The notes beneath the pieces were generated by a model. It was not told the DNA's origin. It did not search any database and saw nothing but the letters and a program-made list of their open reading frames with translations. DNA of 27,841 nucleotides from Myxococcota bacterium (GTDB lineage: Bacteria; Myxococcota_A; UBA9160; PR03): assembly GCA_041611735.1 (NCBI GenBank), contig JBFIML010000051.1, positions 1 through 27,841 of the forward strand, given 5' to 3'. This document shows positions 2,494 through 8,460 of the stretch, in pieces (position 1 is the first letter of the stretch; every line of letters begins with the position of its first letter). The translations under genes and the position numbers were made by a program.

Positions 2494-4122
2494 CTAGTGG
2501 ATGCGCTTGTCGCGTCCCGCCCACTCCTTCTCGCGCAGCTTGAACTTCTGGATCTTGCCGGTCGCCGTCTTGGGCAGCTCGACGAATGCCACCGCCTTCG
2601 GGCACTTGAAGTGGGCCAGGCGCTCGCGGCAGAAGGCGATGATCTCCTCCTCCGATGCCCGGGCTCCGCTGCGCAGCGAGACGAAGGCCTTGGGCACCTC
2701 GCCCCATTTCTCGTGGGGAATGGCCACCACGGCGCATTCGAGGACGGCCGGGTGCTTGGCGAGCGTGTGCTCGACCTCGATGGTCGAGATGTTCTCGCCG
2801 CCGCTGATGATGATGTCCTTCTTGCGGTCCACGAGCTCGATGTAGCCATCCGGGTGCATGACTCCGATGTCGCCGGAGTGGAACCAGCCGCCCTCGAAGG
2901 CCCGGGCCGTGGCGTCGGGATCCTCGAAGTAGCCCTTCATCACGTTGTTGCCGCGCATCACCACCTCGCCCATGGCCTTCCCGTCGGCGGGGACGTCGTG
3001 GATCCGCGCATCCACCACCCGCAGGTGCGTGGCCACGTGGTAGGGAACGCCCTGCCGGGCCAGCATCCGGGCGCGGGCCTCCCCGTCCAGCCCCTCCCAG
3101 CCCGGCTGCAGCTCGCAGTAGACGTGGGGCCCGTAGGTCTCGGTGAGGCCATAGAGGTGGGTCACGCGCACCCCGAGCCGTTCCATGCGCGCCAGCAGCG
3201 TCGGGGAAGGAGGGGCACCGCCCGTCGCCACCCGCAACGGCGGATCGAAGCGCACGCCGCGGGCCTCGGGGGCCTCGGCCAGCATGAGCAGCACCGTGGG
3301 GGCACCGTTCAGGTGCGTGACCTGGTGGAGCGGGACCAGGCGCAGGATCTCCGCCGGGTCCACCCGGCGCAGCATCACGTGGGTCCCGCCCACGGCCGTC
3401 ACCGCCCAGGGAAAGCACCAGCCGTTGCAGTGGAAGAGCGGAAGCGTCCACAGGAAGACCGAGTCCCGCTCGAGCCCGTGGGCCAGGATCTCGCCCAGGG
3501 CGTTCAGGTAGGCGCCCCGGTGGGTGTACATGACCCCCTTGGGGCGCCCCGTGGTGCCCGAGGTGTAGTTGATGGAGGTGATGCGCTGCTCGTCGTCGCA
3601 GGTGTTGCGCACCGGGAGCGTTTCGGCGCCGGCCACGAACTCGGCGAAGCGGGGGCCCGGGAGCGGCGTGCCGGTCACGCCTGCGCCGGGGTCCTCCACG
3701 TTCACCAGCAGCGGCCTGGCGGACAGGCCACCCGGGGCGTCGCGCACCAGCGGGGCGAGCTCCGGGTCCACCAGCACCACGCGCGCCCCGCAGTGGTTCA
3801 GGATGTAGCCGACCTCGTCGGCGGCCAGCCGGGTGTTGATGGCCACCAGGGCGCCGCGCACCAGCAGGACCGCGAAGTGGGCGGCCAGCAGCTCGGGCAC
3901 GTTCGGGGCCAGGAAGGCGACGCGGTCGCCGGGCGAGATCCCGGCCCGCACCAGGGCACCGGCGAAGCGGCCCACCTCCTCGGCGAACTCCGCCCAGGTC
4001 CAGCGCCGTTCGCCGTAGACGACGGCCAGCTTGCCGGGAAACACCCGCACGGTGCGTTCGAGGAGCGCGAGTGGGGAGAGCGGATCGTGGAAGACCGAAG
4101 CTTCGTCTGCAGCGTCCGGCAT
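2494..4122 (-). CDS. Acyl-CoA synthetase / AMP-dependent ligase (medium/long-chain fatty acid-CoA ligase family)
   Basis: Adenylate-forming motifs YTSGTTGRPKG, YGLTETYG, GWFHSGD, DRKKDIIISGGENI and LPKTATGKIQK. I moved the start from 4248 to ATG 4122 (MPDAADEA) because the upstream 42 codons are low-complexity and contain a TATAAT box. Confidence 0.93.
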   Translation of the reverse strand: MPDAADEASVFHDPLSPLALLERTVRVFPGKLAVVYGERRWTWAEFAEEVGRFAGALVRAGISPGDRVAFLAPNVPELLAAHFAVLLVRGALVAINTRLAADEVGYILNHCGARVVLVDPELAPLVRDAPGGLSARPLLVNVEDPGAGVTGTPLPGPRFAEFVAGAETLPVRNTCDDEQRITSINYTSGTTGRPKGVMYTHRGAYLNALGEILAHGLERDSVFLWTLPLFHCNGWCFPWAVTAVGGTHVMLRRVDPAEILRLVPLHQVTHLNGAPTVLLMLAEAPEARGVRFDPPLRVATGGAPPSPTLLARMERLGVRVTHLYGLTETYGPHVYCELQPGWEGLDGEARARMLARQGVPYHVATHLRVVDARIHDVPADGKAMGEVVMRGNNVMKGYFEDPDATARAFEGGWFHSGDIGVMHPDGYIELVDRKKDIIISGGENISTIEVEHTLAKHPAVLECAVVAIPHEKWGEVPKAFVSLRSGARASEEEIIAFCRERLAHFKCPKAVAFVELPKTATGKIQKFKLREKEWAGRDKRIH

Positions 4123-4131
4123 CGATCGGGC

Positions 4132-4137
4132 ATTATA
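4132..4137 (-). promoter_or_regulatory. Sigma70-type -10 box (TATAAT) of the acyl-CoA synthetase gene
   Basis: Minus strand reads CGG-TATAAT-GCCCGATCG-ATG: a perfect consensus hexamer in very GC-rich DNA, 9 nt before the start codon, with no SD. Confidence 0.6.
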
Positions 4138-4155
4138 CCGGTCGGCGAGGGAGAG

Positions 4156-4246
4156 GCCGCGCGCGGAGGCCACGAAGCGCCCGGACGGGGTAGGGCCGGT
4201 CCGGTCCTTCCGAACCAACCGGCGCCCCCGCGCCTCCGCGCGCGGC
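4156..4246. repeat. Perfect 15-bp inverted repeat in the divergent intergenic region
   Basis: GCCGCGCGCGGAGGC (4156-4170) and GCCTCCGCGCGCGGC (4232-4246), flanked by GAGAG (4151-4155) / CTCTC (4252-4256). Confidence 0.7.
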
Positions 4247-4364
4247 ACGGACTCTCACCCCGAAGAACGGCTTGGAGCATGCACGACGCGGGCGGTTCGG
4301 GCTGTGTCGAAGGTCACAGGGTCCCCGGGGGCACGCGCTTCGTCGCCGCACGGGAGGAGCAGGC

Positions 4365-4772
4365 ATGGGACAGCGATGGTTGGTGAAGACGGAGCCCGGT
4401 GCGTACGGCTTCGACGATCTCCTGAGGGACGAACGCACCGTGTGGGACGGCGTTCGCAACGCCCTCGCCCGTCGCCACCTGGGGGGCATGCGCTCGGGCG
4501 ATCCGGTGCTCGTCTATCACTCGGGAGCCGAGAAGGCCGTGGTGGGAACGGCGCGGGTCGGCCGTACCGACGGCCCGGATCCGGAGCTCGTGGCGGGGCG
4601 CCGGCTGTCGCGTCCGGTGCCGCTGGCGGAGCTCAAGGCGGATCGTCGCCTGGCCGGCTGGGCCCTCGTGCGCATGCCGCGACTCTCGGTCATGCCGGTC
4701 ACGGAAGCCGAGTGGCAGGCGGTCGTCGCGCGGGCGAAGGCAGGAAGCAAGAAACCCCGGGAGTGGGCCTGA
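4365..4772 (+). CDS. EVE domain-containing protein (PUA-like fold)
   Basis: WLVKTEP, TVWDGVRNALARRHL..MRSGD.VLVYHS, PVPLAELKAD and LVRMPRLSVMPV are EVE signature segments. SD GGAGGAG at 4353-4359 precedes ATG 4365. Confidence 0.92.
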   Translation: MGQRWLVKTEPGAYGFDDLLRDERTVWDGVRNALARRHLGGMRSGDPVLVYHSGAEKAVVGTARVGRTDGPDPELVAGRRLSRPVPLAELKADRRLAGWALVRMPRLSVMPVTEAEWQAVVARAKAGSKKPREWA

Positions 4773-4808
4773 AAGCCCATCGCGGCTACGGCACCCGCGC
4801 TCCCGGGG
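4745..4808 (-). terminator. Terminator-like three-way junction followed by a U-rich tract
   Basis: Outer 9-bp stem 4800-4808/4755-4763 encloses hairpins 4781-4785/4795-4799 and 4764-4768/4775-4779. The minus strand then reads TTTCTTGCTT (4754-4745). Confidence 0.55.
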
Positions 4809-4871
4809 CGGTGGCTCTGGGAACTTGCGTCCCCGGCTACACCGAGACGATCGAACGATTCGGCGTGGCGC

Positions 4872-4916
4872 CTAGGACGCCGCCACCTCACTCGCCGTAG
4901 AGTCAGGTTTTGACAC
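4872..4916 (-). CDS. Candidate 14-aa micropeptide MSKPDSTASEVAAS
   Basis: Minus strand GGGAGGTGAT-TCG-GTG...TAG. GGAGGTGAT (4928-4920) is a 9-nt perfect complement of the 16S rRNA 3' end, with 7 nt between GGAGG and the GTG. Confidence 0.45.
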   Translation of the reverse strand: MSKPDSTASEVAAS

Positions 4917-5087
4917 CGAATCACCTCCCATCCCGGCGTTGGAACGACCCAGCGAGGCCCAGTCCTCGCTTCCGGGTCCCGGGAGAACCGCGGTCGCCGT
5001 TACCGCCGTCCCGGGCCGCCCCGGCCGGACGGGCCTCGTGCCCGACCGGCGCGGAACTCGGGGATGAGTGAGATCCCCTGGCGGCGG

Positions 5088-5116
5088 ACGGTACCAGACC
5101 GCTGCCCGGGGTGCAG
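5088..5116 (-). promoter_or_regulatory. Putative sigma70-type promoter of the structured RNA
   Basis: CTGCAC (5116-5111) - 17 nt - TACCGT (5093-5088), with an extended -10 TG (TGGTACCGT). This would start transcription near 5079, just before the first hairpin. Confidence 0.35.
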
Positions 5117-5179
5117 GCGCCCGGGAGTCCAGCGCCGGAGACGTGTGCAAGCGGGGCCGGAAGGCCGCGCCGCCTCGGC

Positions 5180-5185
5180 TAGACT
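5180..5185 (+). promoter_or_regulatory. -10 box TAGACT of a probably leaderless purU transcript
   Basis: TAGACT-GCGCCC-ATG: TANNNT 6 nt before the start codon, no SD. Confidence 0.5.
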
Positions 5186-5191
5186 GCGCCC

Positions 5192-6061
5192 ATGCCGGGA
5201 CCCCCCGCGGAGCGGGTCGCCACGCTCCTCGTCTCCTGTCCGGACCGGCGCGGGCTGGTGGCCGCCCTGGCCCAGCTCCTGTACGGGCACGGGGCCAACA
5301 TCCTGGACGCGGACCAGCACACGGACCCCGAGGCCGGCCAGTTCTTCCAGCGCATCCGCTTCGACCTTTCCGAGATCCACACCGACCGCACCGCACTGCA
5401 AGGGGCGGTGTCCGAGGTGGCGGAACGCTTCTCGATGGGTTGGCGCCTCTGCTACGGGGATCGCGTGCCGCGGATGGCGATCTTCGTTTCCCGCCACGAT
5501 CACTGCCTGTACGACCTCCTGTTGCGACATCGGGCCGGAGAGCTGGTCTGCGAGATCCCCCTCTTGATCAGCAACCACCCGGACCTCGAGCGCGTCGCCG
5601 AGCAGTTCGGGATCCCCTATCACCTGTTTCCCATCTCCTCGAAGGGCAAGCGCGAGCAGGAGCAACGCGAGATCGAGCTGCTCGAAGCCGAGCGGATCGA
5701 CCTGGTGGTGCTGGCCCGCTACATGCAGATCCTGAGCCAGGACTTCGTGACCCGATTCCCGACCCGCATCATCAACATCCACCACTCGTTCCTGCCCGCG
5801 TTCGTGGGCAGCAAGCCCTACCACCAGGCTGCCACACGCGGCGTGAAGCTGATCGGGGCCACCGCCCACTACGCCACCGTCGATCTGGACGAGGGTCCGA
5901 TCATCGAGCAGGACGTAGTGCGGTGCTCGCACCGGGACACGGTGGGGGATCTGGTGCGCAAGGGACGCGACCTGGAGAAGGTGGTGCTCGCACGCGCAGT
6001 GCGTTGGCACCTGGAGGATCGGGTGCTCGTCTACGGCAACAAGACGGTGGTCTTCGAATGA
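5192..6061 (+). CDS. purU: Formyltetrahydrofolate deformylase
   Basis: N-terminal ACT domain (CPDRRGLVAA), HCLYDLL, ISNHPDL, LVVLARYMQILS, IINIHHSFLPAF, RGVKLIGATAHY, LDEGPIIEQ and C-terminal NKTVVF. Confidence 0.97.
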   Translation: MPGPPAERVATLLVSCPDRRGLVAALAQLLYGHGANILDADQHTDPEAGQFFQRIRFDLSEIHTDRTALQGAVSEVAERFSMGWRLCYGDRVPRMAIFVSRHDHCLYDLLLRHRAGELVCEIPLLISNHPDLERVAEQFGIPYHLFPISSKGKREQEQREIELLEAERIDLVVLARYMQILSQDFVTRFPTRIINIHHSFLPAFVGSKPYHQAATRGVKLIGATAHYATVDLDEGPIIEQDVVRCSHRDTVGDLVRKGRDLEKVVLARAVRWHLEDRVLVYGNKTVVFE

Positions 6062-6080: not shown

Positions 6081-7043
6081 GTGGCCGCTCGCGTGTTGCT
6101 GATCTTCCTGCTCGCCGCGATCGCCACCATGAGCTGGCTGGCCACCTGCGCCCTGTGGCACTACCGCCAGGTGGCCGCGGGCCTCGAGCCCCTGGAGACG
6201 CGTCGCTTCGAGACGCTCACCTTGATCACCGTGGGGACGGGCGGGGCCTACGAGAACCCGCAGCGGCTCGGCCCCGCCACGGCGGTCGGCCTGGGCGAGC
6301 GGCTGGTGCTGGTGGACGCGGGCCGTGCGGTGGCGGAGGCCCTGCGCCAGGCGCGCATTCCGGTGGCCCAGCCCGACACGGTCTTCCTGACCAGTCTCGC
6401 CCCGGAGAACACGGTCGGTCTGGACGACCTCCTGCTCACGGGCTGGCTCGCCCCGCGCAGCGCGCCCCTGCGCCTGATGGGACCGCCCGGAACCCGTGCC
6501 CTGGCCGAGAGCTTGATGGCCGCACACCGGGACGCGGTGGCGGCGCTCGGGGAGCGCATCGGGCTGCCGCCCGAGGCGGCCGCCCTGGAGGCGATCGAGG
6601 TCCCGGACGGATGGTCCGAGACCCGCGCCGGCCTGGGCGTGCGGGCCACCGCGCTGGCAGGCGGGCCGCTCCCGGCGCGCGCGTGGCGCTTCGAGGCGGG
6701 CGCACGCGCGGCGGTGGTGGGGGGGCCCGGCTGGGACCCGGACGCCCTGGTGACGCTGGCGCGCGGGGCCCACGTACTGGTGCAGGCCGCCGTCCACCGA
6801 CCCTCGGTGGAGATGGCCGTGGAGGCGGGCACGCCGGAGCCGGAGCGGCTGCGACGCGAGGCGGACCTCTACACGGCGACCACGGACGTGGGACGGCTCG
6901 CCCGGCGCGCGGGCGTGCAGCAGCTCGTCCTGGTGCGCCTGCGTCCTCCGCCGCTCTTCGCCCAGCAGTACCGCAGGCTCGTGGGCGAGAGCTTCGCGGG
7001 TCGGGTGGTCGTCGCCGAGGACGGCGACGAGATCACACCCTGA
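6081..7043 (+). CDS. Membrane-anchored RNase Z/arylsulfatase-like MBL-fold protein with degenerate metal-binding motifs
   Basis: N-terminal hydrophobic helix, then TVGTGG, VLVDAGR, VFLTSLAPENTVGL (in place of THxHxDH), LRLMGPPGT, LARRAGVQQLVLVRL and GRVVVAEDG. SD GGGGAGG precedes GTG 6081. Confidence 0.8.
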   Translation: MAARVLLIFLLAAIATMSWLATCALWHYRQVAAGLEPLETRRFETLTLITVGTGGAYENPQRLGPATAVGLGERLVLVDAGRAVAEALRQARIPVAQPDTVFLTSLAPENTVGLDDLLLTGWLAPRSAPLRLMGPPGTRALAESLMAAHRDAVAALGERIGLPPEAAALEAIEVPDGWSETRAGLGVRATALAGGPLPARAWRFEAGARAAVVGGPGWDPDALVTLARGAHVLVQAAVHRPSVEMAVEAGTPEPERLRREADLYTATTDVGRLARRAGVQQLVLVRLRPPPLFAQQYRRLVGESFAGRVVVAEDGDEITP

Positions 7044-8460
7044 CGCCGGGCTCCGGGAACTCGGGCAGGGGCGGGCCGGGCTCCGTGGGCGGCGGCTCGC
7101 GGGGCGGCTCGGGGCGGTCGTCCGGGGCCCGCTCGCCGGTGAAGCGGCGGCGCTGCTCGCGGAAGTAGGCCTCGTTCGGAGCCAGGGCAATGGCCTCGTC
7201 GATGGTGGCGATCGCCTCCTCCTCGCGTCCCACCTGGAACTGCACCTCGGCCAGCGTATCCAGCAGGTTCGGGTCGCCGCGGCGGGTCTCCGACACGGCC
7301 CGCTCCGCCAGCTCGAGGGCGCGCTCCAGGGACTCGGAGGGAGGCCCCGATGCGCCGGTCACCATGAGCCAGGCGGCGTTGTTCAGCACCATGGGCATGG
7401 TCTGCGGCAGGCTCAAGAGCCGCTCGGCGTGGCGGGCCCAGGCCGCCGGACGACCCGCCACCAGCGGCGTCGCTCCCACCAGGGCCGCCACCAGGAGGAT
7501 GGCCAGCAGCGCGTTGGCCAGCACGAGGGCGGGCCGCAGCGCATCGCGACGCAGCCCGGGACCCGTCACGAGCGCGGCGGCAGCGAGCCCCGCCCCGAAG
7601 CCACCGGCATGGGCGGAGCCTGCCACCACGGGCACCACCAGCGGCAGCAGCGCGTTGCCCAGGAGGGCGCCCACGAAGAGGCGGCGCGGAACGCGCCAGG
7701 CCACCGGCAGGCGCTCCGGGGCCCAGAATTCGAGCCAGAGCGCGGCGCCGGCCAGGCCCGAAACGATCCCCGAAGCGCCCACCGCGTACTCGTAGCCCGC
7801 CAGGGCGCCGGCACCCATGGCCCCGAGCGCCGAGCAGCCGAGCACGAAGGCCGTGCGGGCCGCACCGAGCGGGAGCTCCACCAGCGCGCCGACCCCGAGC
7901 AGGCCGATCAGGTTCAGGACCAGATGTGCCACGCCGAGCGAACCGGCGCCGGGCAGGCCGTGCAGGAGGTTCGCGGTGATGGCCCGCCAGGCCTCGCCGT
8001 GGGCGGCCAGGGAGGCGCTGAAGAAGCCCGCGTGCGCCACCACCGGGCCGAGCGCCCGCTCGAGACCCCACACGCCCAGACAGGCCAGGGCCAGCAGCGG
8101 GACGGCCCGTGGAGCACGCGGCAGCCGCACCGCCTCCTCCACCTCGGCCATGCGGGCGAGCTGCGCGGTGCCGTCCGGCTCCTGCGCCACCCGTGCCACG
8201 AGCGATCGCACCAGGCGCTCCGGGTCGCTCGGGTCGGCGAAGTCGGCCCGCCGCAGCCAGAAGACACCCCGTCGCGAGCCGATCCGGACCCAGCGTGCCC
8301 CGAGCTCCAGGTGGGTGAGCTCCCCGTAGCCGACGAACACCTCGCCCGGCACGATGCGCGAGCGCGGCAGCCGCACGCCGGTCTCGTGCAGCGCGACGGG
8401 GTGCCGTCCGCGGCGCAGGGGCAGGCGCTCCGGGGCGGGGGCCAGGCTGGTCGGGGGCAC
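7033..8460 (-). CDS. Rhomboid-family intramembrane serine protease with N-terminal soluble domain and C-terminal TPR-like region
   Basis: EAWRAITANLLH, HLVLNL, catalytic AVGASG and AHAGG. C-terminal LNNAAW...LLDTLAEVQFQVGREEEAIATIDEAIALAP is TPR-like, followed by a Pro-rich tail. Confidence 0.88.
   Translation of the reverse strand: MPPTSLAPAPERLPLRRGRHPVALHETGVRLPRSRIVPGEVFVGYGELTHLELGARWVRIGSRRGVFWLRRADFADPSDPERLVRSLVARVAQEPDGTAQLARMAEVEEAVRLPRAPRAVPLLALACLGVWGLERALGPVVAHAGFFSASLAAHGEAWRAITANLLHGLPGAGSLGVAHLVLNLIGLLGVGALVELPLGAARTAFVLGCSALGAMGAGALAGYEYAVGASGIVSGLAGAALWLEFWAPERLPVAWRVPRRLFVGALLGNALLPLVVPVVAGSAHAGGFGAGLAAAALVTGPGLRRDALRPALVLANALLAILLVAALVGATPLVAGRPAAWARHAERLLSLPQTMPMVLNNAAWLMVTGASGPPSESLERALELAERAVSETRRGDPNLLDTLAEVQFQVGREEEAIATIDEAIALAPNEAYFREQRRRFTGERAPDDRPEPPREPPPTEPGPPLPEFPEPGVRV

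Follow-up and report, generated by a model that had tools for sequence, protein, structure and literature searches.

Translated small open reading frames (ORFs) occur in dual-function small RNAs (sRNAs) such as SgrS/SgrT, RNAIII/delta-haemolysin and SR1/SR1P, and tiny ORFs open the leader-peptide transcription attenuators of the trp, his, phe and pheST leaders. The RNA considered here lies in a 27,841-nucleotide (nt) stretch of Myxococcota DNA (GCA_041611735.1, contig JBFIML010000051.1, positions 1 to 27,841; hereafter the window), in the gap between an EVE-domain gene and purU, and its closest described relative is Ms_IGR-5, which was first reported in Mycobacterium smegmatis and is represented in Rfam by RF02471 ('Actinobacteria sRNA'). 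In the searchable literature, which does not cover the original Li et al. 2013 report, we found no description of an Ms_IGR-5 ORF or of pseudoknots. One report places Ms_IGR-5 between MSMEG_5794 and MSMEG_5795, and describes it as NAD-capped and as a 'validated but yet uncharacterized' sRNA (bioRxiv 10.1101/2021.12.14.472595); ribosome footprints on MS_IGR-5 are reported for M. abscessus and M. smegmatis (PMC4974804), and its detection by RNA-seq is reported for S. lividans (PMC8079986). Comparison with related genomes indicates that the window RNA belongs to the Ms_IGR-5 kind as a cross-phylum variant with a 5' extension and a micro-ORF at its centre: its 3' 200 nt are a distant member of the Ms_IGR-5 module, and its 5' 140 nt an extra folded domain.

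An initial annotation of this gap had proposed a highly structured minus-strand RNA, either a stand-alone large non-coding RNA or a dual-function RNA, for which covariation was needed. BLAST comparison of the window's genome with 40 relatives (41 genomes, 12 families) finds the block in 36 of the 41 at 69-85% identity, with most alignments opening sharply at ~5079 and extending to 4781-4746. For the 3' half 49 pairs were proposed; in 58 representatives less than 85% identical, 88.6% of their cells are paired, as against 39-45% with slid partners, and two-sided changes occur at 19 of these pairs compared to 12.0 ± 2.0 in shuffles (0/500 reach 19). For the 34 pairs of the 5' half, 86.7% of cells are paired versus 42-58% with slid partners, and 25 pairs change on both sides versus 18.1 ± 1.7 in shuffles (0/500), so that compensatory change is present in both halves. 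Folding of the minus strand of 4745-5085 gives -197.5 kcal/mol (z = -4.41, with 0/100 shuffles as good). The value for the plus strand is nearly equal (z = -3.94), and folding energy alone therefore neither proves the RNA nor chooses its strand. The strand is instead fixed as minus, as had been proposed, because this strand accommodates the G-U pairs and the U-tract as well as the ORF and the -10 element. On these comparisons the gap holds a real structured RNA of ~335 nt, predicted to run on the minus strand from ~5079 to 4749, and its conservation, covariation, -10 element and terminator stem support the earlier proposal. Because the RNA contains a conserved 14-codon ORF, with a strong Shine-Dalgarno sequence, at 4916-4872, 'dual-function' is the better half of that proposal, and the accompanying statement that the gap holds no plausible protein gene fails. 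The parts of the RNA are as follows.

5088-5096, minus strand: candidate extended -10 element, TGgTACCGT, read from the sequence; the hexamer is conserved
5060-5078, minus strand: P1 hairpin, loop UCACUC at 5071-5066; 4/6 pairs change on both sides, 93.4% of cells paired
4941-5059, minus strand: remainder of the 5' domain, with four further covarying helices and the invariant ACGGCGAC at 5000-4993, from the alignment and RNAalifold
4840-4938, minus strand: long irregular stem around the ORF, from covariation
4938-4931 with 4847-4840, minus strand: outer helix of this stem; 4/8 pairs compensatory, 89.6% of cells paired
4920-4928, minus strand: Shine-Dalgarno sequence, GGAGGUGAU; GGAGG or GGGGG stands upstream of the start in 113/113 loci
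~4924-4914 with ~4865-4855, minus strand: Shine-Dalgarno/start helix; 6/10 pairs compensatory, 73.6% paired
4872-4916, minus strand: ORF of 14 codons plus stop, GTG to TAG (TAG at 4874-4872), reading M-S-K-P-D-S-T-A-S-E-V-A-A-S
4819-4834, minus strand: hairpin GGGGAC-GCAA-GUUCCC; 78.9% of cells paired
4810-4815, minus strand: GCCACC, the 3' strand of pairing 2 (below), with its partner GGUGGC in the ORF at 4887-4882
4749-4808, minus strand: three-way-junction terminator, from covariation
4808-4800 with 4763-4755, minus strand: closing stem of the terminator, 9 base pairs (bp); 7/9 pairs compensatory, 99.4% of cells paired
4799-4781, minus strand: inner hairpin within the terminator junction, loop GCCGUAG at 4792-4786
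4778-4765, minus strand: variable hairpin within the terminator junction
4754-4749, minus strand: U-tract, UUUCUU, 3' of the closing stem

Most of the individual helices drawn in the initial annotation match conserved, covarying ones. Among them are the 5' hairpin at 5078-5060, the helix of 4925-4913 with 4866-4854, which joins the Shine-Dalgarno sequence and start to the stretch right after the ORF, and the 9-bp stem followed by UUUCUU, which is the best-supported helix of the RNA. The GNRA hairpin at 4834-4819 is also present, but its changes are one-sided only (0/6 pairs two-sided).

We followed the ORF through 113 non-identical loci that were gathered by an exact 22-nt core, so that seven codons are fixed by construction; the same ORF pattern is seen in 20 sequences gathered without this bias by BLAST. 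In every one of the 113 loci the start lies at the same offset (GTG 68, TTG 25, ATG 20) and the stop at one fixed offset (TAG 64, TGA 37, TAA 12). Indels in the variable part come in threes, hence the ORF has 14 codons (106 loci) or 15 (7 loci). Peptide residues 2-6 vary among loci, and the chief variable base of the conserved core occupies the second position of codon 12, which reads A, V, E or G, while third positions are fixed; the last codon is S, F, T, P, L or H. Together with the next two bases, GGAGGUGAU could form 11 bp with the 3' tail of the order's 16S rRNA, as judged by tails from three genomes. A second Shine-Dalgarno-like piece, GAGGUG, lies 9 nt before the stop, at a spacing that is constant in both Myxococcota and Actinomycetota. 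Because start, frame, length and stop are kept and the rest is constrained at the RNA level, selection appears to keep the act of translation and not the peptide.

The ORF also appears to be the hub of the RNA fold. In pairing 1, the junction loop GCCGUAG (4792-4786) is the complement of CUACGGC at 4900-4894 in mid-ORF, with 99.3% of cells paired. One position changes from C:G to U:A, and the four A-initial loops all go with an ORF U, the combination C:A never being seen. Actinomycetota have GGAC(A) and (U)GUCC at the equivalent places, with GUCC present downstream in 113/115 loci and within a hairpin loop in 93, and two distant Myxococcota forms have GGUGA with UCACC and GUGAC with GUCAC. Since both sides differ together in Actinomycetota and in the distant Myxococcota forms, pairing 1 has been replaced as a unit between lineages. 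Pairing 2 joins GGUGGC(G) in the 3' part of the ORF (4887-4881) to (C/A)GCCACC just 5' of the terminator stem, with five positions paired in 58/58 sequences and the sixth in 54/58. Its outer pair covaries in Actinomycetota (U:A in 96 loci, G:C in 11, C:G in 2), and the counterpart in two distant Myxococcota forms is GGUGGUG with CACCACC; this helix, too, changes as a unit between lineages. Finally, GAGUGA in the ORF (4893-4888) is complementary to the P1 loop, which is UCACUC in 110/112 loci and has A at position 2 in the other 2, and we infer a third pairing between them; neither piece occurs in Actinomycetota. All three pairings cross the covarying stem around the ORF, in which the Shine-Dalgarno sequence and start are sequestered, so that a translating ribosome and the fold would be mutually exclusive. 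A different partner for the end of the ORF proposed by RNAalifold, GCGUCC with GGACGC in the arm of the GNRA hairpin, was rejected on a U:U mismatch in the L008 group of sequences.

The invariant ACGGCGA occurs twice on the minus strand, in the 5' domain (5000-4993) and in the ORF (4898-4891). Both copies can pair with (U/C)GCCGU of the junction loop, and on one alignment RNAalifold paired this loop with the 5' copy, which may be an alternative partner.

Scanning the window with Rfam returned no family at gathering score. The sole weak match in a permissive scan is RF02471, which aligns over 1-184 of its 184 positions at 4745-4939 with 22.4 bits versus a cut-off of 45. In 6/19 relatives RF02471 scores 26.1-32 bits, each time at this position; across 121 genomes of the phylum no match exceeds the cut-off, and a search of the window's own genome left the weak match in the window unlisted. 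The description 'unassigned' thus stands as regards Rfam families at threshold, but not entirely, as the 3' half is distantly related to the uncharacterised Ms_IGR-5. Support for this kinship comes from the opposite direction. Using a motif drawn from the Rfam consensus, we collected actinobacterial loci (Mycobacterium, Rhodococcus, Nocardia, Gordonia, Streptomyces, Propionibacteriaceae and others), and we built a covariance model, R1, from Myxococcota 3' halves only. Against 80 actinobacterial loci, 49/58 R1 hits (E up to 1) lie at the correct place and on the correct strand over the full length, 1-206; the best E is 1.7e-5, with no off-target match among the top 20. All nine nhmmer matches to actinobacterial loci are also in place (9/9, E = 0.005-0.4), and nhmmer with the 5' domain gives no match to these loci.

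The architecture of these actinobacterial loci is shared with the window RNA. A Shine-Dalgarno sequence and start are present in 109/113 (TTG 82, ATG 22, GTG 5), and 108 have a 12-codon ORF of the form M-x-x-x-W/R-T-C/R/S-E-V-A/T-A-x-stop, so that both RNAs have a micro-ORF ending in E-V-x-A-x-stop together with ORF-to-terminator pairings. Both also follow the same order of parts: a promoter, a strong Shine-Dalgarno sequence, a tiny ORF, its stop in a hairpin loop, a CACC strand that pairs with GGUG of the ORF, and a terminator enclosing a hairpin, the loop of which is paired to the ORF. Moreover, both are stand-alone genes with varying neighbours, those of Ms_IGR-5 differing among actinobacterial genera. 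The window RNA differs in its extra ~140-nt 5' domain, in its ORF of 14 codons where Ms_IGR-5 has 12, in pairing sequences that are not alike, and in its occurrence in Myxococcota with a link to purU. Ahead of the RNA, ~25-45 nt upstream of the Shine-Dalgarno sequence, most actinobacterial loci carry GGGTACGGTC...GTACACA, and the GGGTA of this region fits the promoter motif reported for NAD-capped transcripts in the same work that describes the capping of Ms_IGR-5 (bioRxiv 10.1101/2021.12.14.472595). In mycobacterial loci (including L167, Mycolicibacterium) the gene upstream of Ms_IGR-5 encodes a class IV aminotransferase, which is not seen there in other actinobacterial genera. Its M. tuberculosis counterpart is annotated as PabC, a folate-pathway enzyme, and this would add a second folate-gene neighbourhood to that of purU.

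R1 finds the RNA once in the window's own genome and in 22/23 other sampled genomes of the order. Elsewhere there is a weak hit in 1/4 sister-family genomes and there are hits in 3 further genomes, giving 27/150 for the phylum sample. The hosts are not actinobacterial, since public records with matching loci are titled as Myxococcota or Deltaproteobacteria metagenome-assembled genomes. A sub-type of the RNA is found in records titled Nitrospirae or Nitrospirota, a second phylum, where it occurs in 14/31 genomes around G178 (G178 included). The sample around G178 shares no genome with that of the window's phylum, and a phylum-wide sample around G178 yields only G178 itself (1/101). By these searches the RNA family spans at least three phyla, namely one Myxococcota order, this second phylum and Actinomycetota.

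With moderate confidence, we propose a mechanism in which translation of the ORF and formation of the fold exclude each other. The RNA would be the product of a stand-alone minus-strand gene of ~335 nt that has a promoter and an intrinsic terminator of its own. The ribosome-binding site and start codon would be held in a helix, while the middle of the ORF would pair with the hairpin loop in the terminator junction, its 3' part GGUGGCG, which is also Shine-Dalgarno-like, with the strand 5' of the terminator stem, and its GAGUGA, probably, with the P1 loop. To read the ORF, which we expect to be translated in the window's organism, a ribosome would have to undo these pairings, and the closed fold would have to hinder the ribosome. 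Because the two oppose each other, the RNA would toggle between a compact, untranslated state and an open, translated one. Since selection keeps the act of translation and not the peptide, we read the ORF as a putative cis-acting, ribosome-operated switch that would couple translation status to RNA stability, termination efficiency or trans-acting activity. A regulatory translation event leaves just this signature, with start, stop, frame and length under selection and the peptide free of it, and would here take place in a stand-alone RNA and not in a leader. An obscure actinobacterial sRNA family would thereby be enlarged to a structured-RNA family in at least three phyla, at whose core a tiny ORF is interlocked with the RNA's own terminator domain. 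The RNA is conserved from Mycobacterium to Myxococcota, and this idea is directly testable in M. smegmatis, which expresses IGR-5 and has genetic tools.

Several observations weigh against this interpretation. The kinship to RF02471 lies under the Rfam cut-off, and the motif that selected the actinobacterial loci and R1 have GTGAGGTG in common, which inflates the R1 scores somewhat. In the set gathered by the 22-nt core, the free evidence consists of the start, the stop, the Shine-Dalgarno sequence and the variable codons only. As regards pairing 1, the junction loop is GCCGGAG in four loci, mismatched to its ORF partner, and the bases that flank the actinobacterial GGAC:GUCC do not covary (C:A in 12 loci versus C:G in 8). 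Pairing 3 involves invariant bases only, without covariation, and is mismatched in the member L013. Expression is weakly hinted at by metatranscriptome-labelled contigs (4 runs from 3 studies, one run being probably DNA), which fall only within 4768-5079; those of 182, 217 and 247 nt are contained in the RNA over their whole length. These contigs carry no strand information and, because the runs were retrieved through the RNA stretch itself, the bare purU and EVE flanks are not evidence and gaps in their cover prove nothing.

A broader, more speculative version, to which we would give only a small chance, is that of an old, cross-phylum 'ribosome-operated RNA switch' in which RNA pairings, and not the peptide, dictate the sequence of the micro-ORF and its translation unlocks the pseudoknotted terminator domain, so that the RNA would report translation-initiation capacity. 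The basis for this reading is the predominance of non-AUG starts (93/113 loci in the order, 87/109 in Actinomycetota) together with Shine-Dalgarno complementarities of 11-13 bp. The product of purU destroys 10-formyl-tetrahydrofolate, the formyl donor for initiator tRNA, and in this Myxococcota order the purU link could tie initiation capacity to one-carbon balance.

The 14-residue peptide might itself be the effector, with the RNA fold only controlling its translation. The ORF signature is complete in 113/113 loci, a C-terminal ...T-x-E-V-A-A-x is common to Myxococcota and Actinomycetota, and ribosome footprints are reported on Ms_IGR-5 (PMC4974804), all of which would suit a micro-protein gene. 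Nevertheless, the common residues are exactly those whose codons pair with other parts of the RNA, and so are explained by RNA constraint. Outside the paired parts of the RNA the peptide changes drastically, actinobacterial codon 7 being C, R or S and codon 12 and the last codon of the order being as variable as described above. Frozen third positions with a varying second position are, moreover, the reverse of protein-level selection, and we regard a micro-protein effector as unlikely.

It is improbable that the ORF is an untranslated by-product of a conserved, purely non-coding RNA, even though its core is constrained at the nucleotide level, its Shine-Dalgarno sequence and start are sequestered in a helix, and Rfam lists Ms_IGR-5 as an sRNA. 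Such a by-product would not be expected to show a start column of only GTG, TTG or ATG and a stop column of only TAG, TGA or TAA in 113/113 loci, nor indels in threes. In addition, Actinomycetota follow the same logic with another start-codon preference, and the footprints reported on the actinobacterial RNA (PMC4974804) also argue against this view.

A cis-acting leader or attenuator, in which translation of the ORF would set terminator formation and hence read-through into purU or an antisense transcript, has to be weighed against the genes around the RNA, which in the window are as follows.

4272-4772, plus strand: EVE-domain gene, Pfam E = 7e-31
5192-6061, plus strand: purU, with Formyl_trans_N and ACT domains by domain match

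Both flanks are thereby identified and the gap between them, as first described, is genuine. Leader-peptide attenuators are built in this way, as an ORF with a terminator behind it, and both ORF pairings reach the terminator domain. Among 101 loci with flanks, some of which represent the same place twice, purU is near the RNA in 76: it lies upstream and divergent in 68 and downstream on the same strand in 8, and none is seen in 25. In three loci the co-directional purU follows 18-40 nt behind the U-tract. The predominantly divergent arrangement nevertheless argues against read-through into purU, and right before the start of the co-directional purU genes there are separate -10-like hexamers, for example TAGAAT or GATACCTT. 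The downstream gene in the window (EVE) is convergent, as is the next gene in 52/71 actinobacterial loci by a rough gene call based on GC content at third codon positions, where its identity varies. Flanks of second-phylum and actinobacterial loci did not yield purU. No conserved antiterminator pairing was found, the candidate CCGGGG (4836-4831) with 4808-4803 not being kept in relatives. We conclude that the purU link is confined to this order and does not turn the RNA into a leader; purU leadership as a general reading was rejected on the same counts, and an attenuator seems quite improbable. An antisense regulator of EVE was also rejected, EVE being adjacent in only 8/101 flanked loci. The window RNA resembles the attenuators in having a tiny ORF whose translation would be the signal, then an intrinsic terminator, and differs from them in having neither a consistent downstream gene nor a run of regulatory codons, nor an antiterminator that we could find.

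That the long Shine-Dalgarno sequence and GAGGUG serve to hold 30S or 70S ribosomes at the 16S 3' end, making the RNA a sensor or sponge of free ribosomes or initiation capacity, is highly improbable, for although GGAGGUGAUUC can form 11 bp with the order's 16S tail, Actinomycetota carry AAGGAGGUGGUCC, the GAGGUG-to-stop spacing is constant in both phyla and non-AUG starts dominate, several sub-families have GGAGGU only and many members have lost the complementarity between the GNRA hairpin and 16S helix 45.

Three conserved pieces of the RNA, at 4834-4819, 4900-4894 and 4928-4918, are complementary to adjoining parts of the order's 16S 3' end (GCCGUAG, GGGAACCUGCG and GAUCACCUCC); the junction loop is identical to the 16S GCCGUAG, and many members no longer match at the middle piece. 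Mimicry of, or antisense pairing to, 16S helix 45 (by the GNRA-hairpin 11-mer and CUACGGC) was rejected because the match is lost in many members and does not occur in Actinomycetota.

The window RNA is structured, is predicted to be separately transcribed and has a short, presumably translated frame, in all of which it resembles the dual-function sRNAs. In the latter, however, the peptide shows protein-level conservation and the ORF is separate from the base-pairing region, whereas the peptide of the window RNA is unconserved where the RNA is free, and the ORF itself would be the hub of the fold. Like transfer-messenger RNA (tmRNA), it is pseudoknotted, roughly 350 nt long and provided with a short internal reading frame, but it has a Shine-Dalgarno sequence and start codon and is without a tRNA-like domain. 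tmRNA was rejected because ARAGORN finds no such domain in the window and there is no RF00023 match at gathering score; the genome's own tmRNA lies elsewhere (contig C78, 135.6 bits). Both 6S RNA and Ms1 RNA are, similarly, abundant stand-alone structured RNAs. The former was rejected, there being no match in the window to RF00013, a rod with a central bubble, and the genome's 6S RNA lying on contig C13 (53 bits); a link of 6S RNA to the folate gene ygfA is described (PMC9130861). Ms1 RNA, which binds the RNA polymerase core, was rejected on synteny and shape. The flanks of Ms1 loci are described as HAD-hydrolase and oxidoreductase genes (PMC9130861) and its fold as a long hairpin with a central bubble (PMC9130861, PMC4191392); the window RNA, with EVE and purU at its sides, has neither these flanks nor the bubble hairpin. 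ZTP, tetrahydrofolate and other riboswitches were rejected in turn, as no aptamer family is found on 4500-5400 even at E up to 10, and because the RNA is divergent from purU in the window it does not lie in the purU 5' leader. The earlier view that the RNA lacks the hallmarks of tmRNA and of folate/ZTP riboswitches agrees with these scans. Literature searches on the peptide, on a purU leader peptide and on a Myxococcus small-ORF RNA returned nothing relevant. Several sub-threshold matches to eukaryotic microRNA families in the GC-rich L007:67-361 look like chance hairpin hits.

A TAnnnT hexamer, mostly preceded by TGn, lies upstream of the first hairpin in 110/112 non-identical loci. The initial annotation had drawn a -35 element, a 17-nt spacer and an extended -10 element here, of which the -10 element is conserved but the -35 is poor. 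A strict consensus scan of the locus returns no sigma-70 site and no simple terminator, because of this poor -35 and because the terminator is a three-way junction and not a plain hairpin. From the placement of the -10 element and the edge of conservation, the transcript probably starts near A5079, where its 5' end had been placed before.

The source genome has a high GC content and an assembly of 4.09 Mb in 118 contigs, with 95% completeness. Beyond EVE, the neighbouring gene encodes an AMP-binding enzyme on the minus strand (2494-4248), and a long plus-strand ORF that overlaps it (2497-4386) has no Pfam match and was rejected as a gene, the AMP-binding enzyme gene being the real one. On the purU side, a -10-like TAGACT ends 6 nt ahead of the purU ATG at 5192 (region 5180-5194, plus strand), and its position suggests that the purU mRNA is leaderless or nearly so. 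The divergent promoters of the RNA and purU would then have ~113 bp in common. At 7033-8460 on the minus strand, a rhomboid protease domain and tetratricopeptide repeats are fused in one protein.

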